A stretch of 64,000 nt of DNA, taken from NCBI GenBank assembly GCA_947482665.1, contig CANKJK010000006.1, forward strand, positions 144,651 through 208,650. Direction: 5' to 3'. The stretch comes from Acidobacteriota bacterium (GTDB lineage: Bacteria > Acidobacteriota > Vicinamibacteria > Vicinamibacterales > UBA2999). Positions 8,201-50,669 of the stretch are shown in pieces. The notes below the pieces were generated by a model that searched no databases, was not told the DNA's origin, and was given only the letters and a program-made list of their open reading frames with translations. The position numbers and the translations under genes were made by a program. How positions within the stretch are numbered: position 1 is the first letter of the stretch; each line of letters opens with the position of its first letter.

Positions 8201-8370
8201 GCGATCGCACCGGTCGCAATCGAGGCGATCTGCGCGGTCGTCAGCGCCGCGACCTGGCGATTGCTGAGCGCGCCGATCTCGGCGGAGGTAAACGACGAGA
8301 TATCCGTCGTCGTGGAGACGGCCGGCGGTGTGGTGTAGAGGCCTCCGCCAAGCGGCGCGACGCTGCCCAC
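2254..8370 (-). CDS. giant octapeptide-repeat protein (2038 aa; consensus A-L-T-T-x-Q-V-A, about 250 tandem units)
   Basis: A single 6.1-kb ORF. The GTG start at 8370 is preceded by GGAGGA 8 nt upstream and by an in-frame TAA. A 33-aa non-repeat head is followed by octads to the last residue (..LSILGLA). I see no signal peptide. Confidence 0.85.
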   Translation of the reverse strand: MGSVAPLGGGLYTTPPAVSTTTDISSFTSAEIGALSNRQVAALTTAQIASIATGAIAGLGSRHLHSLATRGVTVLTTDQIQALSTGQLNALTRAQMATLSSDQLNALGSDQIAALGTGQIASLGTAALAALATDQLAQLSTGQMQALTTAQIAGLASAQVGALETDQVASLKASQIRAIETADLRALGAGQLAALTRPQMAAFTYAQVAALATSQVSALETGDLAAWSAQQMASLTSAQVQALSTDQIASLTPGKLAALGTAGVAALTSDQLRALSPAQLAGLTNAQIAALSSDAFDALETSQLAALTQRQIAAIDTADVASLSTDKIAALTSAQTASLTSAQVQALTDGQVAAIETTDLAALKKTQWDALSTTQIHALTTDQVSSLRKAQFALLSTTAVAALTTDQMAALTGSRLQSLTMAQVAALTTEQLTALTTDQVAGLRPDQVATIAASRLAVMTTEQIGALTSDQAAHLTTAQVVSLDSDHLVALSSAGVAAFTSPQVQALTTDQVGWLGTGQVGALRSTQVRVLTTAQVSALTTGHLASLSTAQVRAFGTAQVAALSSDQLGATDSTQLRALDVSQVAAIRTAVMGALSTDHMAAWTSRQLGAMTTAQIAALDTARIAALDPSAMRGLTGTQVIALSTAQAAALTTDQIQGFSVRQVSVIESDDLNALSSDQVGALTADQVGALSTAQLSALGTAQLVAIETGDLQTLRSFQLVALTTDQVQSLTTEQVQSLLSTQVRGLATAQVAALTTGQVTALASGQLAALRADQVRALTTTQVAALATDQVAALTIGTLAALTTGQVQAFTTDQITAFTTAQVAGFRTAMLAALTTTQVNVLTTDQVVALTSTGVRALTTSQLLALTTGQVAAFEVTDVPALTSDQLNGLATEQVAAFTTAQVAALTAGQVAALDLDRVAALTTDQVVALTTRQVRSLTTDQVGALTTEQVAALETDDVRTLASAQIRALGTAQVAALTTDQIGALRRVQLTALATDQVAALTTDQVAAIPTINLPGLSTAQVVALGSAQVQALTTAQIIGLSTAQVAALTPEQVAVVTTGQFDAMETVDMAALTSGQVAALTTAQLTALDSTHLGALATGALAGLSTTQLAALTTDQVVALTERQYAALSNDQVAALTTEQMAAVETRDLVALTAAQWASLTTTQLGALGTAQVRAIETLDLAGLTTSQVVGFTTEQLTAFATNQVAAFRTDQIGALTTTQLVAVETDQLRALTTRQMQALTSAQLDAVSTAQLQAFTTTQVAALGTDQVTTLSASRLSELTTAQFNAFTSDQVASLTTAQVAGLDTAQVAALTTVTLGRLATEQVAALTTDEMQALTTAHVAALSTDQTGALTTAQVAALISDQVAALTSASLAVLSSAQLNALSTDQVAALTPSQVNALGTAQLPQLLTTQLPGLTTAQVNGLATDNLVSLTTAQVAALSSDQLRALTSTQYAALTTAQIEALPVAEMGNLEAADLAGLTSDQTVVLTTAQLAALATDGVAALTTSALTALGTGQVMALTTDQVAALTSGQLNALTTTQLDALTTAQVAALGSGQIGALSTAQVSVLPTAQVVALSTDQITWLSTSGVAALPAGSIAALTTEQASALTTAQVQALGTAQVAAFTTAQVAALGTASVGALSTTQLGALDTDQVAALTTAQVSGFSPTKLAALTTTQIAALGTAQVGILGSAQVAALSTGQVAALTSDQVAALDAGVVPALTTAQVMALTTEQVASLTTGQVAAIETVDLAVMSTGQVAALETAQVAALGTDQVAAFTTAQIGALSAAQLGAISNGGVAALTTAQAATLSTAQVLGLSTGQVAAFETADLNALGTAALRALSAEQVEAFTTTQVAALTTTQVAALTAEQVGALGVDDFGVLASQQVAALGTDQVAAISAGQLVTLTTSAIGGLTVSGVQALSAEQVAALQSAQVAALSTAQVGALSSDQLGAISDTGVAALRTAQLRVLSDEQIGGFTPGQVSFITLEGIAAMHAAQVAAMNTMQLAAFTAGQIAALTPAQVAALSSDQLSILGLA
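2257..8271 (-). repeat. in-frame 24-nt periodic coding repeat array (about 250 units)
   Basis: The plus strand shows a recurring unit of the type GGCCACCTGCGCGGTGGTCAGCGC. The protein parses into 8-residue units with no register break that I could find by eye. Confidence 0.85.
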
Positions 8371-16464: not shown

Positions 16465-17211
16465 GTGATGTTGCAGGACCACACGCCCAGGACGACCGTT
16501 CTCACCGCTACTTCCGACGCCACCGCGGCGTCCAAGCTGCAGCTCGTCCACGAAATCGGCAGCCGCCTGGCCGCCGACCTCCCACTGCACTCGGTGCTCC
16601 AGCGGATCGTGGAGGTGGTCTCCACCATCGTCCCGGGCGACTCGTGCTTCATCTACGTGCTGGAGGACGACGCGCTGGTGCTGCGGGCGTCGATGACGCC
16701 CCACCCAGACGAGTTGAACCGGCTCTCACTCAAGATGGGCCAGGGCATCACCGGCTGGGTGGCCGCTCACCGTGAGCCGGTGGCTGTGTCCACGCACGCC
16801 TTTGAGGATCCGCGCTTCGAGATCTTCACGAACCTCCCGGAAGACCGCTACGAAGCCATCCTCTCTGTGCCGCTCTTGAGCCGCGGCCAGGTCGTGGGCG
16901 TGATCAACGTGCAGCACCGGCAACCGCATGCCTACACGGCGACCGAGGTCCGTGCCGTCGCCACGCTCGGGTTTCTCGTCGGGGCGGAGGTCGAGATGGC
17001 GCGGCTGGAGGCCGCCAACTCTCAACTCTCGGAGCAACTGGAGACACGGAAGATCCTCGACCGCGCCAAGGGCATCCTGCAACGCGACATGGGCCTGACA
17101 GAGGAGGAGGCGTATCTGACGATTCAGCGCCAGAGCCGCCAGCGGCGCCGCTCCAAGAGGGAAATCGGCGAGGCCATCATCCTCGCGGAGGATCTGCGCC
17201 GGTCACGGTAG
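16465..17211 (+). CDS. GAF + ANTAR RNA-binding antiterminator-type regulator
   Basis: GAF region (..CFIYVLEDDALVLRAS...GQGITGWVAAHREPV..PLLSRGQVVGVINVQH) followed by ANTAR (LETRKILDRAKGILQRDMGLTEEEAYLTIQRQSRQRRRSKREIGEAII). Confidence 0.85.
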   Translation: MMLQDHTPRTTVLTATSDATAASKLQLVHEIGSRLAADLPLHSVLQRIVEVVSTIVPGDSCFIYVLEDDALVLRASMTPHPDELNRLSLKMGQGITGWVAAHREPVAVSTHAFEDPRFEIFTNLPEDRYEAILSVPLLSRGQVVGVINVQHRQPHAYTATEVRAVATLGFLVGAEVEMARLEAANSQLSEQLETRKILDRAKGILQRDMGLTEEEAYLTIQRQSRQRRRSKREIGEAIILAEDLRRSR

Positions 17212-17341: not shown

Positions 17342-17417
17342 GGGCCGGTAGCTCAATTGGCAGAGCAGCAGACTCTTAATCTGCGGGTTGACGGTTCGAT
17401 TCCGTCCCGGCTCACCA
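17342..17417 (+). tRNA. tRNA-Lys (anticodon CUU), CCA encoded
   Basis: Manual cloverleaf: acceptor GGGCCGG/CCGGCTC, D arm GCTC..GAGC, anticodon stem GCAGA/TCTGC with loop CTCTTAA, T arm GACGG-TTCGATT-CCGTC, discriminator A, then CCA. Confidence 0.95.
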
Positions 17418-17771: not shown

Positions 17772-17846
17772 TGTCCACAATTTTCAACCTCAGCCTTCTG
17801 CGGGTGACACATGGTGAATCGGCGATTTGTCGGGTTTCTGTGGACA
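17772..17846 (+). promoter_or_regulatory. inverted-repeat pair in the lower-GC leader of the cytochrome operon
   Basis: TGTCCACA (17772..17779) and its exact complement TGTGGACA (17839..17846). A second pair is GATTCACC (17692..17699) / GGTGAATC (17813..17820). Confidence 0.25.
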
Positions 17847-17923
17847 AAGGTTCACCTTTCATCGCGCAGTCGCTCATGGCCCCGGCCTTGCAGCCGAGGC
17901 GTGCACCTCTCGAGGGCGTCGTC

Positions 17924-19249
17924 ATGCTGACTGAAACCACTGGTCCCGCTTCGCTCACGGCGCTGCATCTCGCACTCGGGATGTTCAGACGCCATCGCGC
18001 TGCGGGGCGCAGCTGGTTCAGTCCGTTCGTGTTGCCGTCGTTTCTCTTCATCCTGGTTCCGTGGGTCTGGCCTACACCGGCGGGTCTCGCCGCAGGAGTG
18101 GCCGCACATCTGTTGTGGCTGCTGCTGTGTGAACGCATGGCGCCCACCCCGAAGCACCTGACTCCCGCGCCGGAGGCACACATGCACGCGCCGACTCCCA
18201 GCGTCAGGCCCGTGCCCGCGCCTCCCACCTCTGGCTTCACGCCCGTCTCCGTGCTGGCGGTGCTCGAGGAAGCACCGGGCATCAAGACCTTCCGCCTGGC
18301 GCGACCGGCGGGCTTCGACTTCCTCCCAGGCCAGTGCGTACCAGTCCGCGTCCAGATTGACGGGCGACCTCACGTGCGCTGCTACTCCATCAGCTCAGCG
18401 CCGGACGTGGCCGGCTACATCGAAATCTCTGTCAGGCGTCAGGGGCTCGTCTCCGGCGCCCTGCACGGCACCCTCCGGTCCGGCTCGACGCTGACCATCG
18501 GCCACCCCGCTGGGGCGTTCACCTATCCCGCCGGGGATGACCGCCCGTTGGCGCTCGTGGCCGGAGGCATCGGCATTACGCCGCTGCTCTCTATGGCGCG
18601 ACATGCCATCGCGGCCCAGCCGTCCCGTCCACTGACGCTCCTCTACTCGGTGCGGGGTGAAGGGGACGTCGCCTTCCGCAGTGACCTGCAGCTCCTCGCC
18701 GAGCGGCACCCACAGGTCCGCGTGGTCATCACGCTGTCGGACCAGCCCGACTCAGTACGGTTCCGCGCGGGCCGCATCGACGCCGACCTGCTCCGGCAGC
18801 ATGTGCCCGCGGCCACCGACACGCTCTTCTACCTGTGCGGCCCGGAGCCGATGATCCAGGCCCTGCGCGGCGTACTCATGGGCATCGGCGTCCCGGACGG
18901 CCAGATCCGGTTCGAGCGGTTCGACATGGCGATCGCGGCCGCCCTGGTCAACGACGCGGACGGTCCGGTCTCATCGCCCAAGGCGTCCGCGACGGTCCAG
19001 GTCACCTTCGGTGCAAGCCACCGCACAGTGGCCGCGTCCTGTTCGCGCACGCTGCTGGAAACCGCGGAGGACGCCGGCGTGGCGCTGCCGTCGATCTGCC
19101 GGTCGGGCGTGTGCCTCTCCTGCCGCACCCGGCTGACGTCCGGCACGGCGGACTGCCGCTCCGATGTGCTGGATGCAGCGGACCGCGCGGCCGGATTCGT
19201 GCTGCCGTGCGTCACCCGCCCGACGAGCGACTGCGTCCTGGAGGTCTGA
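17924..19249 (+). CDS. membrane-anchored ferredoxin-NAD(P)+ reductase-family flavoprotein with C-terminal plant-type [2Fe-2S] domain
   Basis: Two N-terminal hydrophobic helices, FAD motif RCYSISS, NAD(P)H motif LVAGGIGITPLLSM, CGP motif YLCGPEPM, and the C-terminal pattern CRSGVCLSCR...LPC (C-x4-C-x2-C...C). The start is uncertain (ATG 17924 preferred; ATG 17876 or 17747 possible). Confidence 0.75.
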   Translation: MLTETTGPASLTALHLALGMFRRHRAAGRSWFSPFVLPSFLFILVPWVWPTPAGLAAGVAAHLLWLLLCERMAPTPKHLTPAPEAHMHAPTPSVRPVPAPPTSGFTPVSVLAVLEEAPGIKTFRLARPAGFDFLPGQCVPVRVQIDGRPHVRCYSISSAPDVAGYIEISVRRQGLVSGALHGTLRSGSTLTIGHPAGAFTYPAGDDRPLALVAGGIGITPLLSMARHAIAAQPSRPLTLLYSVRGEGDVAFRSDLQLLAERHPQVRVVITLSDQPDSVRFRAGRIDADLLRQHVPAATDTLFYLCGPEPMIQALRGVLMGIGVPDGQIRFERFDMAIAAALVNDADGPVSSPKASATVQVTFGASHRTVAASCSRTLLETAEDAGVALPSICRSGVCLSCRTRLTSGTADCRSDVLDAADRAAGFVLPCVTRPTSDCVLEV

Positions 19250-19252
19250 CGG

Positions 19253-20152
19253 ATGGCTCGCGGCACTCCATCGGCACGCGCCTTCAACGCACTGGCGTTC
19301 GCGGGACTCTTCTGCGCGGTGGCGGTTCCGCTGGTGTTGTTCACCTTCGGAGGATGGGAGTACTACCGGGCACCGATTGGCACGCGCGGCTACATGGAGG
19401 CCCATGCCCTGCTCCGGCCCTCAGGCACGATCGGCCTTCCGCTGGGCATCGCCGGTGCCGTCGCGATGTTCTGCACGTTGCCCTACGCAGCCCGGAAGCG
19501 CTCACGCCTGCTCGCCAGGTTTGGCTCCATGCCACGGTGGCTGGAGGTCCACATCTTCTTCGGGACGGTCGGCCCCGTGCTCGTGACGCTGCACACCTCC
19601 TTCAAGTTCAACGGCGTCATTTCGGTCGGCTACTGGCTGATGGCCGCGGTGTGGTCCTCCGGATTCGTGGGGCGCTATCTCTACGTCCGCATCCCGAAGA
19701 CGCTCAGGGGCATTGAGCTGTCCCAGGAGGAGATGAAGGCCGAGATGGCCGAGGCGGACGCGGCGCTGGCCGCCATGGACCTCCCGCCGGATGCGCGGAC
19801 GGCGCTGGATGCGTTCACGCGGGCTGCGTCACCGCAGGACGGCCGCGCCCCTGGGATCGTCGATCTCTTCTTCGGGGAGCTCGCCGTCCGCATCCGCCTG
19901 TTCACGATGCGCAGCCGCCTGCGCGCGGCAGGGGTAGACCTCGCGGTGCTGGACACGGCCGTGGCCAGCGCCACCAGCCGCGCGATCCTGGCGCGCCGGG
20001 TGGCACACCTTCGGCGCACCCGGCAACTCTTCGGTCTGTGGCACGTCTTCCACCGGCCGCTGGTCTACGCGATGTTCGTGATCGTCGGGCTGCACGTGGG
20101 CATCGCCATCTACCTGGGTTACGCCCAGCTGCTGGGATTGGGGGCGCCGTGA
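19253..20152 (+). CDS. polytopic membrane protein with two intramembrane His pairs (putative di-haem b, ferric-reductase-domain-like)
   Basis: About five TM helices. TM3 WLEVHIFFGTVGPVLVTLHTSF has two His 14 residues apart, and the last TM LWHVFHRPLVYAMFVIVGLHVGI also has a pair 14 apart. Only 3 nt separate it from the upstream gene. Its stop overlaps the next gene's start (GTGA). Confidence 0.45.
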   Translation: MARGTPSARAFNALAFAGLFCAVAVPLVLFTFGGWEYYRAPIGTRGYMEAHALLRPSGTIGLPLGIAGAVAMFCTLPYAARKRSRLLARFGSMPRWLEVHIFFGTVGPVLVTLHTSFKFNGVISVGYWLMAAVWSSGFVGRYLYVRIPKTLRGIELSQEEMKAEMAEADAALAAMDLPPDARTALDAFTRAASPQDGRAPGIVDLFFGELAVRIRLFTMRSRLRAAGVDLAVLDTAVASATSRAILARRVAHLRRTRQLFGLWHVFHRPLVYAMFVIVGLHVGIAIYLGYAQLLGLGAP

Positions 20153-21993
20153 GTTCCGTGCCGCGCCCGCGCCACCGTCTGACGAGGCTGACGATCGCTG
20201 TGGTGGCACTGGCCTGCCTGCTGGGCCCGCGCGCCGCGTTCGCGCAACTCGGGGCGCTGGTGTCGCCAGGCCGGCTCCATCGGACGCATGCGGCCCTCGA
20301 GGGCCTCGACAAGTGCCTGCAGTGCCACTCGAAGGGGCGCCAGGTGTCTGTCGAGAAGTGCCTCTCCTGCCACAAGCCCGTGGCCGAACGCATCGCCCTG
20401 AAGAAGGGCATCCACCGTGCGGCAGCCGGGGACTGCGTGCGGTGCCACGTGGAGCATGCCGGAGCGGATAGTCAACTGCGGCCCTTCGATCAATCGAAGT
20501 TCGATCACGCCCGCGACACGGGCTGGGCCATCGACGGCCTCCACGCACCACTGGCGGCCAAGTGCGTGACCTGTCACAAGGAGCGTTCGTTCCTGACAGC
20601 GGGGACGACGTGCATCTCGTGCCATGCGGATCCGCACAAGCCATCCCTCGGCGCACAGTGCACGACGTGTCACAGCACGAGCGCGAAGTTCAAGGCCGCC
20701 ACCGAAACATTTGATCACGCGCGCGCGAGGTTCCGGCTCTCCGGGGCGCATGCCAAGGCGGCGTGCACCGCGTGCCACGTCAAGGGTCAATACAAGGGCG
20801 TCGCCTTCGAGACCTGCGCAAGCTGCCACAAGGACCCGCACCAGTCGCGGATGGGCACCGCCTGCCAGTCCTGCCATTCGGACACCTCGTGGCGGACGGG
20901 CAAGCTCGATCACGCCAGGACGGCCTTCCCCCTGCGCGGCAAGCACGCGGCCGTGGACTGCGTGAAGTGCCACGTCAAGCCGGCGGCGGTCGTAAAAGTG
21001 CGGGCAGACACGTGTGCGGTGTGCCACACGGACCCGCACCAGGGCGGATTCAAGCAGGACTGCGTGGCCTGCCACACGGAGACGACCTTCCAGAAGGGCA
21101 CGTTCGACCACGGCACCACGAAGTTCGCGCTGGCCGACAAGCATGGGGGCCTCACCTGCGTGACGTGCCACAAGGCCGTGCAGGGGAAGAACCTGGACTA
21201 CCGGGGCCTGAAGACCACGTGCGTCTCATGCCACGCGGACGTGCATCAGGGCGAGCTGGGCGCCACCTGTGAGAGTTGCCACTCGGCCAGGACGTGGGAC
21301 GTCAAGGCCTACACGCACCTCAAGCCGCGTAGCTTCTTTGATGGACGCCACCAGCCGTTGACCTGCACGCAGTGCCATCCCAGCACGCTGCAGCCCACGC
21401 GGACCTCCGCGGCGGTGCCCGCCTTGCGCGTCGGCTTCCCGGGAACGGCCACGGCCTGCGTGGCGTGCCACCAGGATGTGCATCTGGGCCAGCTCAAGAC
21501 GGACTGCGAGCGGTGCCACACGATCGACACACCGAAGTTTGCCGTCGCGGTGTTTGACCATGGCCGCACGGCGTTTCCGCTCACAGGGAAACACGGCCCC
21601 GTGAAGTGCGAGGGGTGCCACAAGACCGAGACCGGCGCCTTCCCGTCCGGCCATGGTTCGGCGCGGAAGTTCACTGGCGTCGGCACAGCCTGCGTGGCCT
21701 GCCATGTGGATCCCCACGCCGGGCAACTCGATCGCGCCTGCGAGACCTGCCACACCGTCGACCGCTTTACGCTGCCGGCCTACGTGCATCGGAACGCGAA
21801 GGGACTCAAGAGCTTCTTCTCGGGCCAACACGCTTCCGCGAAGTGCGCGGCGTGTCACAAGCCATCGCCCGCGGACCGCCCTGACAGGCGGGTGCTGGCC
21901 AGCTACGCCACCGTCACGACGTGCACGTCGTGCCACACCGACATTCACCGCGGCGCGCTCGGGCCCGCCTGCAGCAATTGTCACAAGCCATGA
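20149..21993 (+). CDS. multihaem cytochrome c, 24 CXXCH motifs (eight c7/c3-like triheme modules)
   Basis: GTG 20149 overlaps the upstream TGA. Signal peptide ..LLGPRAAFAQ. I counted 24 CXXCH by eye, with a recurring unit FDH..F.L.G.H...CxxCH...CxxCH.D(P/V)H....G..CxxCH. Confidence 0.9.
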   Translation: MSSVPRPRHRLTRLTIAVVALACLLGPRAAFAQLGALVSPGRLHRTHAALEGLDKCLQCHSKGRQVSVEKCLSCHKPVAERIALKKGIHRAAAGDCVRCHVEHAGADSQLRPFDQSKFDHARDTGWAIDGLHAPLAAKCVTCHKERSFLTAGTTCISCHADPHKPSLGAQCTTCHSTSAKFKAATETFDHARARFRLSGAHAKAACTACHVKGQYKGVAFETCASCHKDPHQSRMGTACQSCHSDTSWRTGKLDHARTAFPLRGKHAAVDCVKCHVKPAAVVKVRADTCAVCHTDPHQGGFKQDCVACHTETTFQKGTFDHGTTKFALADKHGGLTCVTCHKAVQGKNLDYRGLKTTCVSCHADVHQGELGATCESCHSARTWDVKAYTHLKPRSFFDGRHQPLTCTQCHPSTLQPTRTSAAVPALRVGFPGTATACVACHQDVHLGQLKTDCERCHTIDTPKFAVAVFDHGRTAFPLTGKHGPVKCEGCHKTETGAFPSGHGSARKFTGVGTACVACHVDPHAGQLDRACETCHTVDRFTLPAYVHRNAKGLKSFFSGQHASAKCAACHKPSPADRPDRRVLASYATVTTCTSCHTDIHRGALGPACSNCHKP

Positions 21994-24074
21994 CGAGGGC
22001 CACCATGACGCGCCTGCTCCGTCTTCTCACGTTGCTGTCCGGCGTCTGGCTGATGGCTGCGCCAGCGTCAGCGCAGTTCGACACGCCGAATCGCCAGTTC
22101 CACGACAAAACCACCTTCCGGCTCGAGGGTAAGCACCTCTCGACGCCCTGTGCGTCCTGCCACCTGAACGAGGTGTACAAGGGCACGCCGCGGCAGTGTG
22201 TCGACTGCCATTGGGTCCGCCGGCAGGATGACCGGTTCAAGCTCCAACTCGGCCGCCAGTGCGAGCAGTGCCACCGGCCCACGGCGTGGACAGGCGCGCG
22301 GTTCGACCATGCCGCCTTGACGTCCATGCCACTCGGCGGCGCGCACCGGCAACTGGCCTGTCAGACCTGCCACAAGAACGGCGACTTCCGCGGCGTACAG
22401 GGTGGCGGCTGCGTGAGTTGTCATCTGAAGGACTACCAGGCGGCCCGCACGCCGAACCACGTCACCGCTGCGTTCCCCACGACCTGCGAGGTCTGCCACC
22501 GGGTCAATGACACCTCATTCCACCAGGCTGGGTTCAACCACGCGGCGGCGTTTCCCCTGGTCGGCCCGCACGCCACGCAGACCTGCGCGGCCTGCCACGC
22601 CAACGGCGTCTACAAGGGCACGGCCCGCGACTGTGTGGGCTGCCACCGCACGGACTACAACCGGACCACGACCCCGAATCACGCCGCCGCTGGCTTCTCG
22701 ACCGACTGCCAGTCGTGCCACAAGGCGACAGAAAGCAGTTTCCGCGGGGCCGGGTTCAACCACACGGCCGTCTTCGCGCTCGTTGGCCAGCACGCGACGC
22801 AGACCTGCACGGCCTGTCACGTCAACAACGTCTACAAGGGCACGGCCCGCGACTGCGTGGGCTGCCACCGCACAGCCTACGACCGGACCACCACGCCCAA
22901 TCACGCCGCCGCCGGCTTCTCGACCGACTGTCAGTCGTGCCATAAGGCGACTGAGAGCAGCTTCCGCGGGGCCGGGTTCAACCACGCGGCCGTCTTCGCG
23001 CTGGTTGGCCAGCACGCCACGCAGACCTGCACGGCCTGCCACATCAACAACGTCTACAAGGGCACGGCGCGCGACTGCGTGGGCTGCCACCGCACGGCCT
23101 ACGACCGGACCACCACGCCCAATCACGCCGCGGCCGGCTTCTCCACCGACTGTCAGTCGTGCCATAAGGCGACGGACAGCAGCTTCCGCGGCGCGAGCTT
23201 CAATCACGCAGCCGTCTTCCCCTTGGTCGGCCAGCACGCCTCACAGACGTGCACCGCCTGCCACGTCAACAGCGTCTTCAAAGGCACGGCCCGCGACTGC
23301 GTGGGTTGTCACCGAGCCGCCTACAACAAGACGAGTGCGCCCAATCACGCCGCCGCTGGCTTCTCCACCGACTGTCAGTCGTGCCATAAAGCGACGGACA
23401 GCAGCTTCCGCGGCGCAAGCTTCAATCACGCGGCCGTCTTCCCCCTGGTTGGCCAGCACGCGACGCAAACCTGCGCGGCCTGCCACGCCAACGGCGTCTA
23501 CAAGGGCACCGCACGCGACTGCGTGGGTTGTCACCGCTCGGTCTACGACAAGACCAGCGCGCCCAATCACGCCGCCGCCGGCTTCTCCACCGACTGTCAG
23601 TCGTGCCACAAGGCGACGGACAACAGCTTCCGCGGCGCGAGCTTCAATCACGCGGCCGTCTTCCCCCTGGTTGGCCAGCACGCCTCGCAGACCTGCACCG
23701 CCTGTCACGCCAACGGCGTCTACAAGGGCACCGCCCGTGACTGCCTCGGCTGTCACCGCTCGAAGTACGACCGGACCAGCTCGCCGAATCACGCCGCCGC
23801 CGGCTTCTCCACCGACTGTCAGTCGTGCCACAGGGCCACCGACTCGTCGTGGGGACAGGGCACCTTCAATCACCGGTTCCCGATCGCATCCGGGCGCCAC
23901 AAGGCGCCGTGCTCGAGCTGCCATCAGAGCGGCACGGCCTACGCCAACTTCACCTGTCTGACGTGCCATGAGCATGCCCAGGCGTCGATGGATAGCAAGC
24001 ATCGAGGCCGCAATGGTTATCGCTATGAGTCACGCGCCTGTTACAGCTGCCACCCGACCGGGCGCGGCGACTAG
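21990..24074 (+). CDS. multihaem cytochrome c, 27 CXXCH motifs (nine triheme modules, six near-identical)
   Basis: ATG 21990 overlaps the upstream TGA (ATGA). Signal peptide ..WLMAAPASAQ. I counted 27 CXXCH by eye, with unit FNH..F.LVGQH...CxACH.N.VYKGTARDCVGCHR..Y..T..PNHAAAGFSTDCQSCH. Confidence 0.9.
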   Translation: MTRATMTRLLRLLTLLSGVWLMAAPASAQFDTPNRQFHDKTTFRLEGKHLSTPCASCHLNEVYKGTPRQCVDCHWVRRQDDRFKLQLGRQCEQCHRPTAWTGARFDHAALTSMPLGGAHRQLACQTCHKNGDFRGVQGGGCVSCHLKDYQAARTPNHVTAAFPTTCEVCHRVNDTSFHQAGFNHAAAFPLVGPHATQTCAACHANGVYKGTARDCVGCHRTDYNRTTTPNHAAAGFSTDCQSCHKATESSFRGAGFNHTAVFALVGQHATQTCTACHVNNVYKGTARDCVGCHRTAYDRTTTPNHAAAGFSTDCQSCHKATESSFRGAGFNHAAVFALVGQHATQTCTACHINNVYKGTARDCVGCHRTAYDRTTTPNHAAAGFSTDCQSCHKATDSSFRGASFNHAAVFPLVGQHASQTCTACHVNSVFKGTARDCVGCHRAAYNKTSAPNHAAAGFSTDCQSCHKATDSSFRGASFNHAAVFPLVGQHATQTCAACHANGVYKGTARDCVGCHRSVYDKTSAPNHAAAGFSTDCQSCHKATDNSFRGASFNHAAVFPLVGQHASQTCTACHANGVYKGTARDCLGCHRSKYDRTSSPNHAAAGFSTDCQSCHRATDSSWGQGTFNHRFPIASGRHKAPCSSCHQSGTAYANFTCLTCHEHAQASMDSKHRGRNGYRYESRACYSCHPTGRGD
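22533..23864 (+). repeat. six tandem 222-bp (74-codon) repeats inside the 27-haem cytochrome gene
   Basis: The TTCAACCAC / TTCAATCAC (FNH) codons that open each unit occur at 22533, 22755, 22977, 23199, 23421 and 23643, exactly 222 nt apart. Long identical nucleotide runs are shared between units. Confidence 0.9.
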
Positions 24075-24092
24075 GACGAGGAGGAACACGCC

Positions 24093-25412
24093 ATGATGCG
24101 CGACCGCTTTCACTGGCTGGCACTCGGGATGACCCTTGGTCTGGCCGCGCCGCTCTGGGCACAGTCCGCACCGCGCCCTGACGCCCGCATCTCGTTCTTT
24201 TTCACCACGGCACGACGGAGCCCTGAGGGCGGGCCGGCACACAACGATGCCGACTTCGCGACCTCCTTTACGTTCAGGACACCGGACCAGGATGCGCCCG
24301 GTCTCGACGCGGGGATCGATATGCGCCACACGGCCTACACGGTCACCGGTCGGCCGCAGCGGATCTCGCTCTACAACCTCTTCGCCGGTGCCCGGCTCGG
24401 GGATCGGGGGCAGGTTCGCGTCCGGGCAGGCCATCTCTGGCTGCCGGACCTGGGCACGGCGGGCGCACTGGCCGGAGGCCTGGCCGAATATCGCAGCCAG
24501 CCGGCCGGGGCGAAGAGCCGACTGGTGACGGGCATCTTCGCCGGGGCAGAGCCCCTCGGGTATGAAGCGGGCTACGCGCCAGGAGTCCGGAAGTTCGGCG
24601 GCTATGCCGCGCTCGAGAGCGGGTTCCTCCGTCGGCATGTGATCGGCTTCGCGAACATCTCGCAGGCAGGCATCACCCAACGGTCGCTGCTGACCGTGAC
24701 CAACTACCTCCCCGCGGGGAAATCCTTCTTTGCCTACCAGGCCCTGGAGTACGACCTGCGCGGGCCGGCCAACGGCGCGGCCACGGGCGGTCTCTCCTAC
24801 TTCCTCGTCAACGCCCGTCAGTCCGCGGGCTCAAAAGTGGAGGTGCAGGGCACCTACAATCGCGGGCGCTCACTCGATGTCCGGCGCCTGGCCGACGACG
24901 TCCTCAATGGCCGCGCGCTCACACCCCAGGCGGTCGACGGTCTCCGCTACGAAAGCGCGGGAGGCCGGGTGAGCGTGAAGGCCTGGCCGCACGTTGAGGT
25001 CTACGCGGGATACGCGCGCGACCGCAATAACAGGGATGACGCCCCGACCGGCCGCCTGACCGTTGGCGGCTACGGCTCGAACCTCTTCGGCGCGGGGCTC
25101 GACATCTCCGCGTCGGACGCACGGATTGATCGGCCCACCGGCCCCTACCACTCACGCTACGTCTCGGTTGGCCGGGCCATGGGCCGGTCGCTCTACGTGT
25201 CGGGCGACTACTCGACGTCACTGGCCGTCGTGCGCTTCCTCCGGAGCGACGGGGTCACCATCGAGACGCGCCCCTGGTCTCGGCGGGTCTCCGGCAGCAT
25301 CTCGGCCACACTCACCCGACAGCTCTCCCTCACCGGCGTCGTCGATGTCACCCGCGATGCGGACATGACCGACGTGCGCATGATGACCGGACTCTCCTAT
25401 CGCTTCAGGTAG
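24093..25412 (+). CDS. putative outer-membrane beta-barrel protein
   Basis: GAGGAGGA ribosome-binding site and signal peptide ..GLAAPLWAQ. There are many short alternating hydrophobic/polar strands with aromatic girdle residues. The C-terminus ..MMTGLSYRFR is barrel-like. Confidence 0.55.
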   Translation: MMRDRFHWLALGMTLGLAAPLWAQSAPRPDARISFFFTTARRSPEGGPAHNDADFATSFTFRTPDQDAPGLDAGIDMRHTAYTVTGRPQRISLYNLFAGARLGDRGQVRVRAGHLWLPDLGTAGALAGGLAEYRSQPAGAKSRLVTGIFAGAEPLGYEAGYAPGVRKFGGYAALESGFLRRHVIGFANISQAGITQRSLLTVTNYLPAGKSFFAYQALEYDLRGPANGAATGGLSYFLVNARQSAGSKVEVQGTYNRGRSLDVRRLADDVLNGRALTPQAVDGLRYESAGGRVSVKAWPHVEVYAGYARDRNNRDDAPTGRLTVGGYGSNLFGAGLDISASDARIDRPTGPYHSRYVSVGRAMGRSLYVSGDYSTSLAVVRFLRSDGVTIETRPWSRRVSGSISATLTRQLSLTGVVDVTRDADMTDVRMMTGLSYRFR

Positions 25413-25417
25413 CCCCC

Positions 25418-26092
25418 ATGTGCATGCTTCGGATCATTCGCGTCTGCTCTCTGGCCGCCCTGGCGGCCATGCCGCTCCTGGCCCGCACGGCCGGGGCACA
25501 GTCCGCTCCCCCTCACGGCGCCAGCAACGCCACACAGATGGTGCGCGCCGCGGGCATGCCCCTCAATGACGGAACCCTTCCTCCTGGCTCCCTGACGGTC
25601 CGCGTGGTGGCCGGAGCCTTCACCGGCGACCTGCGCGGCATCAGCGTCGCACTCGCCGTAGAAGGAGCGCCCGTGCAACGGGCGCTGACCGGCGAGAAGG
25701 GCCGGGCCGAGTTTGCGCACCTGCCGGTGGGTTCGCGGGTTCGAGTATCGACTGTCGTCGGCTCGGAGCCGTTGCAGTCCGAGCTCTTCCCGATGCCTGC
25801 GGAGAGCGGCGTGCGCATCCTGCTGGTGGCGCAAGGCAGCGCCGAGGGCGGCGAGGCTGGCGCCACACCCTCTCTCCCGCTCCCGGCACCGGCCACCTCG
25901 CCCGCGGCACCGGGTGCACCCGCACCAACGGTTCCTGGCCCAGTCGCTGGCCACACCACGGGAGACATATTGATCGTGGCGTTCTTCGGACTCGCCACGC
26001 TCGTCGCGGCGGTCCTGTTTCTGCGCCGGCGCCCGCGCCGCACTCCCGCCGGCACAACGACGCACCACGACACGGCGGCCCCACCGTCGTGA
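25418..26092 (+). CDS. secreted CarboxypepD_reg-like (Ig/prealbumin-fold) domain protein with Pro/Ala-rich linker and C-terminal TM anchor
   Basis: Signal peptide ..ARTAGAQ. Domain block GSLTVRVV..G..L.GISVAL...TGEKGRAEFAHLPVGSRVRV. Linker PSLPLPAPATSPAAPGAPAPTVPGP. TM ILIVAFFGLATLVAAVLFL followed by RRRPRR. Confidence 0.5.
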   Translation: MCMLRIIRVCSLAALAAMPLLARTAGAQSAPPHGASNATQMVRAAGMPLNDGTLPPGSLTVRVVAGAFTGDLRGISVALAVEGAPVQRALTGEKGRAEFAHLPVGSRVRVSTVVGSEPLQSELFPMPAESGVRILLVAQGSAEGGEAGATPSLPLPAPATSPAAPGAPAPTVPGPVAGHTTGDILIVAFFGLATLVAAVLFLRRRPRRTPAGTTTHHDTAAPPS

Positions 26093-26487: not shown

Positions 26488-27382
26488 ATATGACCCCGCA
26501 GAACTCTCCGCGAAAGTCCTGAGCAAGGCCGGCGTCATCGTCGTGGCCATCGCCGTCCTGGCGTTCTTCTTCAGCTCCTATTCGATCATCTCGCCCGGTA
26601 ACACCGGCGTGATCTTCAACGTGTGGACGGGCTCGCTCCGCACCGTGCCCCAGGGCATCGCCTGGCGCGTGCCGTTCATCACCCAGGTGCAGAGCTACCC
26701 GACGGCGCTGCGCACCTACACGATGGTGCGGCGTGCGACGGAAGGCTCGGCCACGGGTGACGACAGCATCGACCTGCCGACCCGCGAGGGGCAGCACATC
26801 ACCCAGGACATCTCAGTAACCTTCAACACCTCGGAGGGCCAGGCGGCGCAGGTCTTCAAAGCCTTCCGTGGTGCCGACATCTCGGAGATTGAAGCGACGT
26901 TCATCCGCCGCACGATCATCACCGTCGCGCAGAACACCGCCGGGCAGATGGACCTCTCGGAGGTCATCTCATCGAAGCGCAGTCAGCTGCAGGAAGGCAT
27001 CCAGGCCAACCTCGGCGCCGAGCTCACCAAGATGGGCTTTCACCTCGACAAGGTGAACCTGGGCGCCAGCCATCTGCCCCAGTCGCTTGAAGTGCAGATG
27101 CAGCAGAAGATGGCGGCGCAACAGCAGGCCCAGCAAGCCGAGTACGAGCTCCAGAAGAACCAGATGCTCGCCAAGGCGGAAGTGGCCAAGGCCGAGGGCG
27201 AGGCGCAAGCGACGCTCGTGCGGGCCAAGGCGCAGGCCGAGGCGAACCGGCTGCTCCAGGCCACGCTCACGGCCAACCTGATCCAGGGGAAGGCCATCGA
27301 CAAGTGGAACGGCGTGCTGCCGCAGGTCTCCGGTGGCGCCACGCCGTTCATCGATCTCCGCGCGCTCGCCACCACGAAGTAA
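26474..27382 (+). CDS. SPFH/Band 7/prohibitin-family membrane protein
   Basis: N-terminal TM, SPFH core (PGNTGVIFNVWTGSL...VPFITQVQSYP...) and a C-terminal coiled-coil (QQAQQAEYELQKNQMLAKAEVAKAEGEAQA). AAGGA ribosome-binding site. Confidence 0.85.
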   Translation: MTPIEYDPAELSAKVLSKAGVIVVAIAVLAFFFSSYSIISPGNTGVIFNVWTGSLRTVPQGIAWRVPFITQVQSYPTALRTYTMVRRATEGSATGDDSIDLPTREGQHITQDISVTFNTSEGQAAQVFKAFRGADISEIEATFIRRTIITVAQNTAGQMDLSEVISSKRSQLQEGIQANLGAELTKMGFHLDKVNLGASHLPQSLEVQMQQKMAAQQQAQQAEYELQKNQMLAKAEVAKAEGEAQATLVRAKAQAEANRLLQATLTANLIQGKAIDKWNGVLPQVSGGATPFIDLRALATTK

Positions 27383-27426
27383 GACCACCGCCTCTCGTAT
27401 CGCGCCACTGGCCGTCCACCAGCGTC

Positions 27427-29610
27427 ATGCCACAGCTTCGTCTGCTCGCCTTCGCAACCGCGGTCTGGGCCGCGCTGTCCCTGAACACCTTTGCCGCAGG
27501 CCCTCCTCCGTCGGTCACGCCCACGCGGGCCACGACGCCGCCGCAGATTGACGGCCGGCTGGACGAACCCCTCTGGGCCACGGCTGCCCGCATCACCTCG
27601 TTCACGCAGCAGCAGCCCGTCGAGGGCGCACCGGCCTCCGAGGCCACGGAGGTGCTACTCGCCTACGATGCGTCGTTCATCTACGTGGGCCTGCGCGTGC
27701 ACTACTCGGACCCGTCGCTGGTGCGCGCCAACCGGTCCGACCGCGACCAGACCTCGGCGGACGACACCATCACCATCTCCATCGACCCGTTTCGCGACGC
27801 CCAGCGGGGCTACGCCTTTTCGGTGAACGGGTACGGCGTGCAGGCGGATTCGCTCCTCATCACGAACCCTGCGGGCATCACCGTCGACACGTCCTGGAAC
27901 GTGCTCTATCAAACAGCCGGGCAACTCGTTGCGGACGGGTGGGTGGCCGAGATGGCGATCCCCTTCAAGAGCTTGCGCTATCCGGCGGTCGGCAAGGGCA
28001 AGGCCCACCGCTGGGGCTTCCAGATCCAGCGTGATATCCGCGGCAAGAATGAGCTCGCCACGTGGGCGCCGCTCCCCAACACCTCGGCAACAGCCCTCGG
28101 CCAGATGGGCCTGCTCGAAGGCATGCAGGATCTCGCGATCCAGCGCATCACCGAACTGATGCCCACGCTCACGAGTCAGCGGGTGGACGTGCGGTCGGCG
28201 TCGGGTGCGCTCACCACCACGAGCGTCACGGAGGCCGGTCTGACGGCCAAGTACGGCGTGACGTCGAACCTGACGCTGGACCTCACCGTGAATCCGGACT
28301 TCTCCCAGGTGGAGACGGACATCCCGCAGATTCAGGTCAACCAGCGCTTCCCGCTCTTCTTCACGGAGCTGCGGCCGTTCTTCCTCGAAGGGCAGGAAGC
28401 CTTCCGCACCAACGGCCCCTTCCCCTTCCTGCACACGCGCACGATCATCGACCCGCAGTTCGGGGTGAAGCTCACGGGCAAGATGGGCCGGTGGCTGATT
28501 GGCGCGCTGGCCGCCAGCGATGCGTCCTCCGGCAAGGTGGACGACCCCGCCGACCCGGCCTCTGGCCACAGCGCCACGGTCACCGCACTGCGCCTCCGGT
28601 ACGACATCTACCGCGAGGCCTACAGCGGCATCCTCCTCGTGGACCGGGAGTTCATGGACACGCACAGCCGGCTCGCCATGTTCGACAACAACCTCAAGAT
28701 TGGCCGCAGCCGCACCCTCGGCATCGCCGGCGTCCTGACCGACCACCGCGACGCCGCCGGCATCAGCCGCACGGGGCACTTTGTCGACATTGGCTTCATC
28801 GGCCAGAGCCGCCACACCGGCTACAGCGCGGCCTATCACGACGCCAGCCCTGACTACCGCAATGACTCGGGTTTTGCGCAGCGCGTGGACTACCGGCGCA
28901 TCTTCGGCAATGCGTCATACCGCTGGTGGCCCGAAGGCACCATCGTCAACTGGGGGCCACGCGGAAACTACGAGCGCTGGTACGACTACGCCGGAACCCT
29001 CACCGACGAGATTCGCGGGGCGACGTGGAACACGCTGCTCGCGCACAGCATCACGCTCTCGGCCTCGGCCAACCGCAACATGGAGCGCTACCGGGGTATC
29101 GACTTCGACAAGACCCGCTGGCAGGCCAAAGCCGTCATCAACGCCAGCCGCAAGGCGGCCCTGACCGTGGACTGGAACCACGGCGGAGAGATCCGCATCG
29201 TTGCGTCCCCCTTCCTCGGCAGCACCACGGCCTACAACGCCACGCTGGTGCTCCGGCCCACCGCGCGATTCCAGAGCGAGGTCCGTCTCAACACCACGCG
29301 CTTCCTCGACGTCCGCACGGGCAGTGAGGCCTTCAACGTGAAGATCCTCTATGCCAAGTCCACCTACCAGCTCTCACCGCGCCTGCTCGTCCGCAACATC
29401 GTCGAGTTCAACACGCTCACTCGCACGGTACTGGCGAACATCGTGGGGACGTATCGCGTCAATGCCGGCACGGTCTTCTTCGCCGGCTACGACGACCGCT
29501 ACAAGGACTTCGGCGCAACCACCCCCACGACGGCCGAGGACCGCACCCAGGGCTACGAGCGGACCAACCGGGCCATCTTCGCCAAGCTGCAGTACCTCTA
29601 CCGGCGCTGA
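27427..29610 (+). CDS. CBM9/DOMON-like + DUF5916-family outer-membrane-associated protein
   Basis: Signal peptide, then PPQIDGRLDEPLWATAARITSFTQQQPVEGAPASE..., ending ..FAKLQYLYRR. It is a paralog of 50670..52943. Confidence 0.6.
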   Translation: MPQLRLLAFATAVWAALSLNTFAAGPPPSVTPTRATTPPQIDGRLDEPLWATAARITSFTQQQPVEGAPASEATEVLLAYDASFIYVGLRVHYSDPSLVRANRSDRDQTSADDTITISIDPFRDAQRGYAFSVNGYGVQADSLLITNPAGITVDTSWNVLYQTAGQLVADGWVAEMAIPFKSLRYPAVGKGKAHRWGFQIQRDIRGKNELATWAPLPNTSATALGQMGLLEGMQDLAIQRITELMPTLTSQRVDVRSASGALTTTSVTEAGLTAKYGVTSNLTLDLTVNPDFSQVETDIPQIQVNQRFPLFFTELRPFFLEGQEAFRTNGPFPFLHTRTIIDPQFGVKLTGKMGRWLIGALAASDASSGKVDDPADPASGHSATVTALRLRYDIYREAYSGILLVDREFMDTHSRLAMFDNNLKIGRSRTLGIAGVLTDHRDAAGISRTGHFVDIGFIGQSRHTGYSAAYHDASPDYRNDSGFAQRVDYRRIFGNASYRWWPEGTIVNWGPRGNYERWYDYAGTLTDEIRGATWNTLLAHSITLSASANRNMERYRGIDFDKTRWQAKAVINASRKAALTVDWNHGGEIRIVASPFLGSTTAYNATLVLRPTARFQSEVRLNTTRFLDVRTGSEAFNVKILYAKSTYQLSPRLLVRNIVEFNTLTRTVLANIVGTYRVNAGTVFFAGYDDRYKDFGATTPTTAEDRTQGYERTNRAIFAKLQYLYRR

Positions 29611-40577: not shown

Positions 40578-40581
40578 CCCC

Positions 40582-42879: not shown

Positions 42880-42884
42880 GTGCC

Positions 42885-45545: not shown

Positions 45546-45632
45546 TGGAGGACCCTCCGCCGCTAGTATGCGCCCCTCACAGCCAGCCGCAGAGGCTCTC
45601 TCGGATGGCCCCGTCGCCAACCGCCAGCGGAT

Positions 45633-49393: not shown

Positions 49394-50587
49394 ATGCGTC
49401 TCTCGACGGCCCGCGCCACCGCGGCCTGCATCCTGCTCACCGCCCTGGCCCTTGCGGGCGGCGCCTGCTTTAGCCGTCCCGGAGGGCCACACGCCCCGCC
49501 CGGATATCTCGTGGGCGCCTATTACTACCCCTGGTACTACTCGGGCCATTGGGCCTCGCACGACTACGTCGGCAAGCACCTGCCAGAACCGCTGGAGCCG
49601 CAGTTCGGCGAGTACGTCTCGGACGACCCGAAGGTCATCGCGAACCATCTCGACCTCGCGTCGAAGTACGGCATCGATTTCTTCATTCTCAGCTGGTCCC
49701 TGAAGGACAGCTTCGCGGACCTGACGCTGCGGAAGTACGTCCTGCCCGCAATGGCGCAGACAGCGGTCAAGCACGTGGTCTACCTGGAGGTGCCGGCGTA
49801 CAGGAAGCGCGACCTGGGCGACCCGGTGTTCCGACAGCGGCTGTTGGACGACCTCCGGTTTCTCGGCACCGAGTTCCTGTCGCATCCCTCGGCGCTCAGA
49901 ATCAACGGCCGGCCGGTCCTCATCCTCTACGCCTCGCGTGTGCTCACGGGCGACATCCCGGGATTGATGAAGGAGGCTCGGGCCATGTATGCCGGCATGG
50001 GCCTCAACCCGTTCATCATCGCGGACGAAGCCTTCTGGTACCAGCCGGATGTCACCCGGGTCAAGGCCTACGACGCCATCACGTCCTATAACGTCTACGA
50101 CTGGCCGCGCACCGGCGACAAAGGCTACGCGGCCACGTCGGGCTTTCTCGCGGGAGCGGAATCCCTCTTCACGACGTGGCAGGCCGCCACGCGTGCCGCG
50201 GGTACGGCGTTCGTGCCCAACGCGATGCCTGGCTTCAACGACCGCGGCGTCCGGCTCCAGGAGAACCACTTTGTGATTCCACGCCGCCTGAATCCCGAGG
50301 CCTCGCCCACCAGCCTCTTCGAGCGGTCCGTTGATCTGGCAAAGCGATTCGCTGACCCCTCGCTGCGGATGATCACGATTACGAGCTTCAACGAGTGGAA
50401 TGAGTGGACGGCCATCGAGCCGACGCGCAAGGCCGTTACCCGGACGCCACTGCCCAACCCCGAGGCCTACACGCAAGGCTACCCGCACGACGACTTCGGC
50501 ACGGCGTATCTCGAGGTCGTGCGCGATCGGCTTGGCGATGGACGGCCCGCCCCACCCCCTGGCGCCGCGGCCCCGCCTGCGCACTGA
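49394..50587 (+). CDS. glycoside hydrolase family 99-like (endo-alpha-mannosidase-like) secreted protein or lipoprotein
   Basis: Signal peptide with Cys (ALAGGAC), then GAYYYPWY...GEYVSDDPKVIANHLDLASKYGIDFFILSW...ITSFNEWNEWT. Confidence 0.5.
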   Translation: MRLSTARATAACILLTALALAGGACFSRPGGPHAPPGYLVGAYYYPWYYSGHWASHDYVGKHLPEPLEPQFGEYVSDDPKVIANHLDLASKYGIDFFILSWSLKDSFADLTLRKYVLPAMAQTAVKHVVYLEVPAYRKRDLGDPVFRQRLLDDLRFLGTEFLSHPSALRINGRPVLILYASRVLTGDIPGLMKEARAMYAGMGLNPFIIADEAFWYQPDVTRVKAYDAITSYNVYDWPRTGDKGYAATSGFLAGAESLFTTWQAATRAAGTAFVPNAMPGFNDRGVRLQENHFVIPRRLNPEASPTSLFERSVDLAKRFADPSLRMITITSFNEWNEWTAIEPTRKAVTRTPLPNPEAYTQGYPHDDFGTAYLEVVRDRLGDGRPAPPPGAAAPPAH

Positions 50588-50669
50588 GTCAGATGACGCG
50601 GGTCATGCGACACAACACGACGAAGCGCTTGCGCTGAACCCGGCGCCGACCCTCTATAGTCGAACGGAT

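Follow-up and report, generated by a model that had tools for sequence, protein, structure and literature searches.

Six tightly packed genes in the genome of an Acidobacteriota bacterium appear to encode a route by which electrons from NAD(P)H could cross the whole cell envelope. The genes, g1 to g6 in their order along the forward strand, lie at positions 17924-26092 of the window, by which we mean the whole stretch of DNA that was analysed (64,000 nucleotides of contig CANKJK010000006.1). We give a probability of about 55% to the reading that this operon is a PCC3-type trans-envelope multihaem conduit with a two-protein, NOX-like inner-membrane module through which NAD(P)H electrons enter. 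The evidence is computational throughout (sequence, profile, predicted-structure and synteny analyses). Observed directly are the domain and motif content of the proteins, a barrel fold, the conservation of particular histidines, and a synteny in which one gene has undergone non-homologous displacement. The features of the operon, all on the forward strand, are:

17924..19249, + strand: g1, a membrane-anchored NAD(P)H:FAD:[2Fe-2S] reductase of 441 aa, from Pfam domains and motifs
18011..18130, + strand: N-terminal two-helix membrane hairpin of g1, aa 30-69, from hydropathy segments 30-48 and 51-69
19097..19210, + strand: plant-type [2Fe-2S] ligands of g1, C392, C397, C400 and C429 (CX4CX2C...C), kept in 58 homologues
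19253..20152, + strand: g2, a five-helix inner-membrane protein of 299 aa, predicted to be a dihaem b cytochrome from its motifs and AlphaFold2 (AF2) model
19538..19594, + strand: motif W96-x3-H100-x13-H114 in the third transmembrane (TM) helix of g2; H100 100% and H114 99% conserved
20039..20095, + strand: motif W263-x3-H267-x13-H281 in TM5 of g2; H267 96% and H281 95% conserved, the rest being gaps
20149..21993, + strand: g3, a Sec-exported 24-haem c-type cytochrome of 614 aa (25.6 aa per haem), with 24 CXXCH motifs and 27 further His
21990..24074, + strand: g4, a Sec-exported 27-haem c-type cytochrome of 694 aa, with 27 CXXCH motifs and 28 further His
22533..23843, + strand: tandem repeat of 222 bp (74 aa, three haems) in g4, 5.9 copies, from Tandem Repeats Finder
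24093..25412, + strand: g5, an outer-membrane beta-barrel of ~24 strands and 439 aa, from an AF2 model (mean confidence, pLDDT, 87.3; 24 strands by DSSP)
25418..26092, + strand: g6, a protein of 224 aa in which a signal peptide precedes a conserved ~110-aa domain, followed by a Pro/Ala linker and a TM helix at the C-terminus, from a 16-homologue alignment

What kind of system is this? He et al. (2017, Front Microbiol 8:1584, PMC5566968) reported putative PCC3 clusters from Fe(II) oxidisers as well as from many other Proteobacteria. These clusters consist of a porin, a repeat-rich extracellular multihaem cytochrome (MHC; median 34 haems), a periplasmic MHC with a median of 21 haems (21-27 in Gallionellaceae), and an inner-membrane protein (IMP) of ~300 aa (PMC5566968). 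The IMP of PCC3 and PCC4 has five TM helices, with WX3HX13H on TM3 and TM5 and SGXXG on TM4, and the same authors tabulated PCC4 as well as porin-less clusters of an MHC, an IMP and an “other redox protein” (PMC5566968). With this description g2 agrees exactly, in its ~300-aa length, its five TM helices, both WX3HX13H motifs and the SGXXG motif. Similarly, g3 resembles the periplasmic MHC (21-27 haems at ~26-27 aa per haem, that of PCC3 being built of ~60-aa repeats), g4 resembles the second, repeat-rich MHC of variable haem number, and g5 corresponds to the adjacent porin of 22 or more strands. For example, the PCC3 of Leptothrix cholodnii, with MHCs of 24 (27 aa per haem) and 22 haems and a 22-strand porin, has nearly the same numbers as g3 and g5. 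Judged by these described features (motifs, haem counts and gene content), the g2-g5 core is a PCC3-type cluster. This overturns the proposal, made in a sequence-only reading of the window, that the conduit is undescribed; the known systems listed there did not include PCC3 or PCC4, so that the list was incomplete. There are also differences from PCC3: the gene order is not the same, the cassette includes a flavoprotein (of the g1 or the Fer4-Pyr_redox type) and g6, and in place of Proteobacteria the hosts belong to Acidobacteriota and to FCB-group or candidate phyla. No link of PCC3 or PCC4 IMPs to NAD(P)H was found in the literature searched. The new part appears to be the conserved NAD(P)H-flavoprotein entry module, which is at odds with the quinone/uptake model of these clusters.

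The better-known conduits are more distant. MtrCAB of Shewanella and the OmaB-OmbB-OmcB and Ext complexes of Geobacter share the principle of a periplasmic MHC, a barrel and an outer MHC, but they carry 8-12 haems where 24-27 are found here. Membership of the Mtr/DmsE/OmcA families was rejected on score, g3 reaching 42.1 against a cut-off of 192.2 for TIGR03508 and g4 reaching 26.7 against 209.3 for TIGR03507. Mtr-type, Geobacter porin-cytochrome and CymA, ImcH or CbcL routes all draw on the quinone pool, and MtrCAB and the Geobacter complexes are fed by quinol through CymA, ImcH or CbcL; the conserved partner here is an NAD(P)H flavoprotein. The 8-13-haem, Mtr/Omc-like extracellular electron transfer (EET) clusters from peat in a 2026 preprint are a different system.

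The strongest evidence for NAD(P)H as the source of electrons comes from comparing g2 loci. A scan of one genome per species gave 80 such loci, to which seven plasmid loci were added. The hosts of the 80 are mostly Vicinamibacterales, Thermoanaerobaculia, Holophagae and other Acidobacteriota; the remainder include KSB1, Calditrichaceae, Krumholzibacteriota, Neomarinimicrobiota and unclassified metagenome-assembled genomes (MAGs). Judging by how its nearest homologues are named, the bacterium of the window is itself of Vicinamibacterales type. Among the 74 loci with sufficient upstream flank, 62 have a g1 homologue ahead of g2 at a distance of at most 700 bp, and two more have it slightly farther away. 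Downstream of g2, 75 of 77 loci have multihaem cytochromes, and g5 was detected in 42 of 57 (E<1e-10). Eleven loci have enough flank and no g1 (in KSB1, Calditrichaceae, Neomarinimicrobiota, Krumholzibacteriota and others), and every one of them carries instead a TM-anchored flavoprotein with 2x[4Fe-4S] and Pyr_redox_3 domains. This replacement has an N-terminal TM helix, is encoded on the same strand inside the cluster, and has no homology to g1; its flavin part resembles YpdA and TrxR, and such enzymes use NAD(P)H. Thus, in 100% of adequately flanked loci the neighbour of g2 is an NAD(P)H-type Fe-S flavoprotein from one or the other of two unrelated families. Non-homologous displacement of this kind is a classical signature of functional partnership, here a predicted one between g2 and its flavoprotein, and an NAD(P)H entry route is favoured because two unrelated membrane-anchored NAD(P)H-type flavoproteins occupy the same place beside g2. 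The order of the six genes is likewise conserved in related genomes: a relative whose g2 is 61% identical has all six in identical order between wholly different flanks, and the order recurs in dozens of Acidobacteriota MAGs. Some genomes carry two divergent g1-g2-cytochrome cassettes (L006 and L074 in MAG MFD02979.bin.2.36; L020 and L067 in MAG ABC2.44), a situation that recalls Sideroxydans sp. CL21, from which two copies of PCC3 have been reported.

Relatives on plasmids extend this pattern to smaller units. A minimal triad, in which an FNR-[2Fe-2S] protein and a cytochrome c accompany a g2 homologue, is found on plasmids of Sphingobium, Alteromonas, Methylophaga, Acetobacter, Caulobacter and Qipengyuania, with junctions of 1-4 nt and often behind a gene for a MerR-type heavy-metal regulator. 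The membrane protein of the Sphingobium triad is a g2 homologue with an hhalign probability of 98.8%, and the cytochrome has seven haems where these were counted (Sphingobium and Alteromonas). Together with the replacement of g1, these triads give strong comparative support to the idea, first raised from the sequence, that the entry module is a pyridine-nucleotide one. The triads lie in copper or heavy-metal islands with DUF1622 (L087:5998-9785, from Sphingobium yanoikuyae NZ_CP053022.1, and L088-L092). A larger cassette is present at L086:5854-18438 on pEMTOL02 (NC_018749.1), a 100-kb plasmid of the cultured Bacteroidota species Emticicia oligotrophica DSM 17448. Its order is ccsA, the g2 homologue, a Fer4/Pyr_redox_3 flavoprotein, a 23-haem MHC, a 40-haem MHC, a 538-aa protein and a GW-domain protein; the g2 homologue is WP_015031196 and the flavoprotein WP_015031197. 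The 538-aa protein has no homology to g5 detectable by hhalign (probability 3%), and a barrel there is unproven. A plasmid search with g3, aimed at proteobacterial PCC3, returned Emticicia and two weak matches only. The Sphingobium triad flavoprotein has a feature of its own, an extra N-terminal signal peptide and a Met/His-rich periplasmic segment resembling a copper site, followed by a single TM helix.

The g1 protein has what an entry enzyme would need. It exceeds the Pfam gathering scores for FAD_binding_6, NAD_binding_1 and Fer2 (the last at residues 367-434), and its cofactor motifs (RCYS152, GGIGITP214, CGP305 and C392x4C397x2C400...C429) are intact and kept in 58 homologues. The solved proteins nearest to it, phthalate dioxygenase reductase, BenC, cytochrome b5 reductase and NqrF, all donate electrons from NAD(P)H to a partner. 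The homologues of g1 are named only generically, and none of the NCBIfam equivalogs was reached (score against cut-off: PaaE 183/421, Hcr-type 169/383, NqrF 58/295); with scores so far under the curated cut-offs, identity with PaaE, Hcr, GbcB, BenC or NqrF was rejected. Class I FNR-[2Fe-2S] reductases (phthalate dioxygenase reductase, PaaE, Hcr and BenC) and NqrF have the three cofactor domains and their motifs in common with g1, and NqrF of Na+-NQR is, like g1, membrane-anchored; both would pass NAD(P)H electrons through FAD and [2Fe-2S] to a membrane complex. They differ in domain order, which is TM-Fer2-FNR in NqrF and two-helix anchor, FNR and then Fer2 in g1, and in the partner, which for g1 is a predicted dihaem membrane protein, unlike that of any of these reductases. 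The N-terminus of g1 is Arg-rich ahead of the hydrophobic hairpin, and therefore the catalytic domains, including the FNR domain, are predicted to lie at the cytoplasmic face. Within the membrane region, H15 and P46-W47 are invariant among the 58 homologues and H62 is mostly kept.

The g2 protein is the likely point at which electrons would leave the cytoplasm. Its AF2 model is all-helical (pLDDT 80.6). Hydropathy and the model together place TM helices at 7-31, 61-73, 96-116, 122-146 and 230-293, with the positive-inside rule satisfied and a predicted cytoplasmic insert of ~120 aa between TM4 and TM5; TM4 carries S136-G137-x-x-G140, the SGXXG motif. The g2 family comprises 3,282 clusters (50% identity, E<=0.001). 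Across 109 full-length cluster representatives, 25-48% identical to g2, four histidines alone are near-invariant (H100, H114, H267 and H281), and both WX3HX13H motifs and SGXXG are kept at 93-100%. Two of these histidines are on TM3 and two on TM5, each pair spaced i,i+14 and lying at the same depths in the membrane as the other. The predicted topology puts one member of each pair close to the cytoplasm (H100 and H267) and one close to the periplasm (H114 and H281), a layout that has the geometry of two stacked bis-His haems. Such a His pattern binds two b haems in cytochrome b and in NOX/FRD (He et al. 2017, PMC5566968). Apparent fusions of g2 with Fer2 or c7 domains (P0263, P0355 and P0358) were considered as Rosetta-stone evidence and discarded as frameshift artefacts because they contain long off-frame Arg/Ala-rich stretches.

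The two cytochromes have the features of long molecular wires. In residue-shuffled versions of g3 and g4, CXXCH occurs ~0.3 times, with a maximum of four; the observed motifs, 51 in all, are far above this expectation. The g3 protein matches Pfam Cytochrome_C7/CIII and the NCBIfam c7-type triheme domain TIGR04257 (41.2 bits against a cut-off of 40), and the two proteins consist of eight (g3) and nine (g4) triheme units of c7/c3 type at ~26 aa per haem. Their additional histidines suffice for bis-His ligation of every haem. The repeat in g4 has 88% matches, no indels, a score of 1838 and three haem sites per copy, and a CXXCH spacing of 16/25/33 recurs along it. The signal of g4 is of Sec type I only (ASA|Q), and there is no lipobox. 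Comparison of g3 and g4 with the sequences of solved cytochromes gave no significant match. Haem number is nearly always 24 in g3-type homologues from Acidobacteriota and 20 outside this phylum, while in g4-type homologues it varies from 12 to 36, mostly by threes. Fusion of g3 and g4 into one protein of 40-63 haems is seen in some lineages (seven loci: L023, L025, L027, L031, L032, L044 and L057). With its fixed length, g3 is probably the wire that spans the periplasm. The polymeric c7-type “nanowire” cytochromes of Geobacter (the GSU1996 family) are likewise chains of triheme units with c7/c3-type domains; unlike them, g3 and g4 have 8-9 such units, and their operon also encodes a barrel and an entry module in the inner membrane. 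A far larger protein is encoded at L029:8479-18477 (Acidobacteriota MAG CAVRZJ010000024.1), directly past a g2 homologue, where an open reading frame (ORF) containing 134 CXXCH motifs extends over more than 3,332 aa and runs off the contig.

The assignment of g5 to the outer membrane follows from its predicted structure. All of the best 50 listed Foldseek matches to the model are outer-membrane barrels, with the best TM-scores to the 24-strand usher FimD; MtrB is absent from these 50. One homologue matches Pfam Porin_4, and hhalign identifies the KSB1 counterpart as a remote homologue (probability 93.7%). The protein has a signal peptide (LWA|Q) and ends in ...SYRFR, where Y436, R437 and R439 are conserved and the last residue is not aromatic. 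The sequence-only reading had thus described most of the parts correctly: a two-TM-anchored FNR flavoprotein with a C-terminal [2Fe-2S] domain, a polytopic protein with two intramembrane His pairs, cytochromes with 24 and 27 CXXCH motifs (counts that were reproduced), and a barrel. It had also called g6 a secreted protein with a C-terminal anchor. The signal peptide and the anchor are there, but “secreted” does not hold: with its TM helix at residues 184-202, followed by RRRPRR, g6 has the topology of an inner-membrane-tethered periplasmic protein. It was found in 14 of the 56 loci with enough flank and is probably a lineage-restricted accessory.

How might electrons move through such a system? 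In the mechanism we propose, g1, held by its hairpin at the cytoplasmic face, would oxidise NAD(P)H and pass electrons from FAD to its [2Fe-2S] cluster, which would reduce the cytoplasmic-side b haem of g2 (H100/H267). The electron would then cross the membrane to the periplasmic-side b haem (H114/H281) and be handed to the 24-haem g3, whose eight triheme units would be long enough for the periplasm. From g3 it would move to the 27-haem g4, the length of which may be tuned among relatives by gain and loss of the three-haem repeat; g4, lying in or through the ~24-strand barrel of g5, would deliver it to an extracellular acceptor, for example Fe(III)/Mn(IV) minerals or humic matter. In this scheme, g6 would be a lineage-specific periplasmic accessory. 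The inner-membrane part has precedents in the NOX/FRE superfamily and its bacterial relatives (MsrQ with Fre, PepSY-like FoxB, DUF4405), in which electrons run from cytoplasmic NAD(P)H through flavin and two bis-His b haems to an outside acceptor, as proposed here. These proteins and g2 both have His pairs on two helices with 13 residues between. There are three differences: the flavoprotein here is a separate polypeptide that adds a [2Fe-2S] or 2x[4Fe-4S] step; g2 has five helices and the cytoplasmic insert; and the acceptor is a multihaem c wire, where NOX/FRE systems use O2, Fe-chelate or MsrP.

Energetic considerations bear on the direction and purpose of the route. The NAD(P)H couple lies at about -320 mV. 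Both the strong reducing power of NAD(P)H and the membrane potential, which aids the exit of electrons, favour outward flow. As the electron exits the cytoplasm, the proton of NAD(P)H remains, and the route would therefore dissipate membrane potential. Since membrane potential would be consumed, the function would more likely be redox balancing or reductive mineral solubilisation than energy-conserving respiration. The likely role is disposal of excess reductant or reductive attack on Fe(III), Mn(IV) or humics.

Several observations weigh against this reading or limit its reach. First, haem b binding by g2 is a prediction from motifs alone. The protein has no Pfam or NCBIfam match above threshold, and when 17 members of its family were compared with dihaem families, all matches fell below the Pfam thresholds: DUF4405 (PF14358) in 14 of the 17 (best E 0.0029; 16.1 bits for P0001 against a cut-off of 26.7), Ferric_reduct (PF01794) in seven (best E 0.12) and Ni_hydr_CYTB in five. 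These matches recur across the family, however, and point to dihaem-type families, among which DUF4405 has a purified member that binds haem b (PMC11334425). A Foldseek search of the Protein Data Bank (PDB) with the whole g2 chain, including its long insert, gave nothing at E<=0.001, neither NOX nor STEAP nor cytochrome b561 among others, and the g2 family profile had no significant match to PDB sequences. Second, we infer where g4 is located, which way electrons flow and what accepts them, as well as the contacts between g1 and g2, g2 and g3, and g4 and g5. Third, the packing of the six genes suggests that they are co-transcribed, and no promoter, terminator or regulator site was found: promoter and terminator scans were at chance level, and a search of 55 upstream regions for Fur, Rex, FNR/CRP, ArcA and IscR consensus boxes and for shared 8-mers returned only GC-rich noise. 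Fourth, the g1-g2 pair has no adjacent cytochromes in two loci (L024:3-3849 and L037:428-2827). In the first of these, from Acidobacteria bacterium RBG_13_68_16, the pair lies downstream of a gene for a ChrA chromate transporter. Such loci suggest that g1-g2 may be a modular electron-export unit that works with various partners. Fifth, the published model of these clusters treats the IMP as a quinone-active cytochrome b with inward electron flow (PMC5566968), and later work still calls PCC3 functionally unverified. Proteobacterial PCC3 is described as four genes, with no flavoprotein; given this, the NAD(P)H link may not extend to all IMP families. Finally, a quinone site may coexist with a flavoprotein partnership.

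The alternative that survives best is a quinone-coupled PCC3 in the sense of He et al. (2017), although we consider it unlikely. Here g2, as a dihaem cytochrome b reacting with quinones, would link the quinone pool to the wire by electron exchange, and the flavoprotein would be an accessory. As a variant, g1 and g2 could together form an NAD(P)H:quinone oxidoreductase, or g1 could be a reductase for repair or priming. The quinone-coupled model is the one published for IMPs with identical motifs (PMC5566968), and the absence of a flavoprotein from proteobacterial PCC3 speaks for it, as does the reaction of bc1 cytochrome b and of the cytochromes b of hydrogenase and formate dehydrogenase with quinones, given the weak Ni_hydr_CYTB similarity of g2. 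What is hard to square with the quinone pool as sole partner is the combination of two unrelated, self-anchored flavoproteins, translationally coupled junctions, and the presence of one or the other flavoprotein at all adequately flanked loci. No quinone-site motif turned up, although no search aimed at one was made.

A periplasmic function without EET is a poorer candidate. In that case g1-g2 would keep periplasmic cytochromes reduced, for Cu/Cr detoxification, repair of oxidative damage or electron storage, and the barrel would serve another purpose, for example the passage of substrates or metals. The plasmid triads are the best argument for such a role, with their copper and heavy-metal islands, MerR-type regulators, small seven-haem cytochrome and lack of a porin; the MAG with ChrA, g1 and g2 and no cytochromes also fits, and NAD(P)H-driven periplasmic repair has a general precedent of the MsrQ/Fre type (PMC11334425). 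In the family of the present operon, however, the barrel is conserved beside the cytochromes across phyla, and wires of 24-134 haems, varying in length by repeat number, better fit conduction over long distances than a redox buffer in the periplasm.

Least likely is inward uptake, in which electrons taken from Fe(II), minerals or reduced humics outside the cell, or from a cathode, would be passed by way of g2 and g1 to form NAD(P)H. In its favour, PCC3 was discovered in Fe(II) oxidisers and has been discussed as a candidate iron oxidase or uptake route, and porin-cytochrome conduits can be bidirectional (PMC10734462). Against it, Fe(II)-type donors would have to reduce NAD(P)+ at about -320 mV, which is strongly uphill, and electrons would move inward against the membrane potential; no energy-coupling device is evident from the domain content of the module, and the hosts are mostly Vicinamibacterales and other heterotroph-type Acidobacteriota MAGs.

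What are the implications if the PCC3-type conduit is indeed fed by NAD(P)H? First, there would be a second, non-respiratory logic of EET, serving redox balancing, reductive acquisition of Fe/Mn, or the generation of extracellular reductant or reactive oxygen species. An NAD(P)H-fed route would differ from a quinone-fed one in wiring, regulation and energetics, and could serve as a redox valve or as a means of dissolving minerals. Second, the quinone/uptake model of PCC3/PCC4-type clusters would be overturned, and the PCC3 and PCC4 of iron oxidisers would have to be reinterpreted. Third, a large unannotated family of membrane proteins and a set of giant multihaem cytochromes would gain a function. 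A broader proposal, to which we give somewhat less than even odds, is that the g2 family forms the core of quinone-independent, NOX-like export in which interchangeable Fe-S flavoproteins feed periplasmic multihaem cytochromes, up to porin-embedded wires of 24 to more than 130 haems in soil Acidobacteriota and candidate phyla. The hosts, Vicinamibacterales and other Acidobacteriota, dominate soils, sediments and wastewater sludge. Cultured carriers include Emticicia oligotrophica for the conduit and, for the minimal triad, Sphingobium, Alteromonas and, from Supplementary Table 6 of He et al., Rhodopseudomonas/Bradyrhizobium.

The layout of the operon is that of a tightly packed unit. The six forward-strand ORFs were recovered at the same coordinates as in the sequence-only reading, with a codon-position G+C bias typical of real genes in a window of ~68% G+C, and every junction that it described can be read directly in the sequence. 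The end of g1 (19249) is separated from the start of g2 (19253) by 3 nt, with GGAGG ahead of the ATG of g2. The next two junctions are overlaps, GTGA at 20149-20152 between g2 and g3 and ATGA at 21990-21993 between g3 and g4; an alternative in-frame ATG for g4, at 22005, was chosen in a public gene call. An 18-nt gap containing AGGAGG separates g4 from g5, and one of 5 nt separates g5 from g6.

Upstream of the operon, tRNA-Lys(CTT) at 17342-17417 lies between a GAF-ANTAR regulator gene (16465-17211) and g1; it was the sole match in an Rfam scan, which found no riboswitch. The regulator gene was considered as a controller of the operon and rejected, since tRNA-Lys intervenes and the regulator is missing from the locus of the relative with the 61%-identical g2. 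The leader ahead of g1, downstream of tRNA-Lys, is ~500 nt long and contains two pairs of inverted repeats: TGTCCACA (17772-17779) with TGTGGACA (17839-17846), and GGTGAA (17813-17818) with TTCACC (17851-17856). The two cross and are not nested; they could be due to chance or form a binding site. Downstream of g6, a gap of 380 nt precedes a Band_7 gene.

Some other genes of the window deserve mention. Two paralogous genes, at 27304-29610 and 50400-52943, encode large secreted DUF5916 proteins, the first of which also has a CBM9-like domain; one DUF5916 gene lies shortly downstream of the operon, past the Band_7 gene. At 2254-8370, on the reverse strand, a protein of 2,038 aa consists almost entirely of ALTTAQ repeats (65 matched stretches of Pfam PF20080). 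Finally, an unusual fusion of a response-regulator receiver, a trypsin-like protease and an RHS repeat is encoded on the reverse strand at 36870-38672, and several hybrid histidine kinases at 39057-45620 adjoin this gene.

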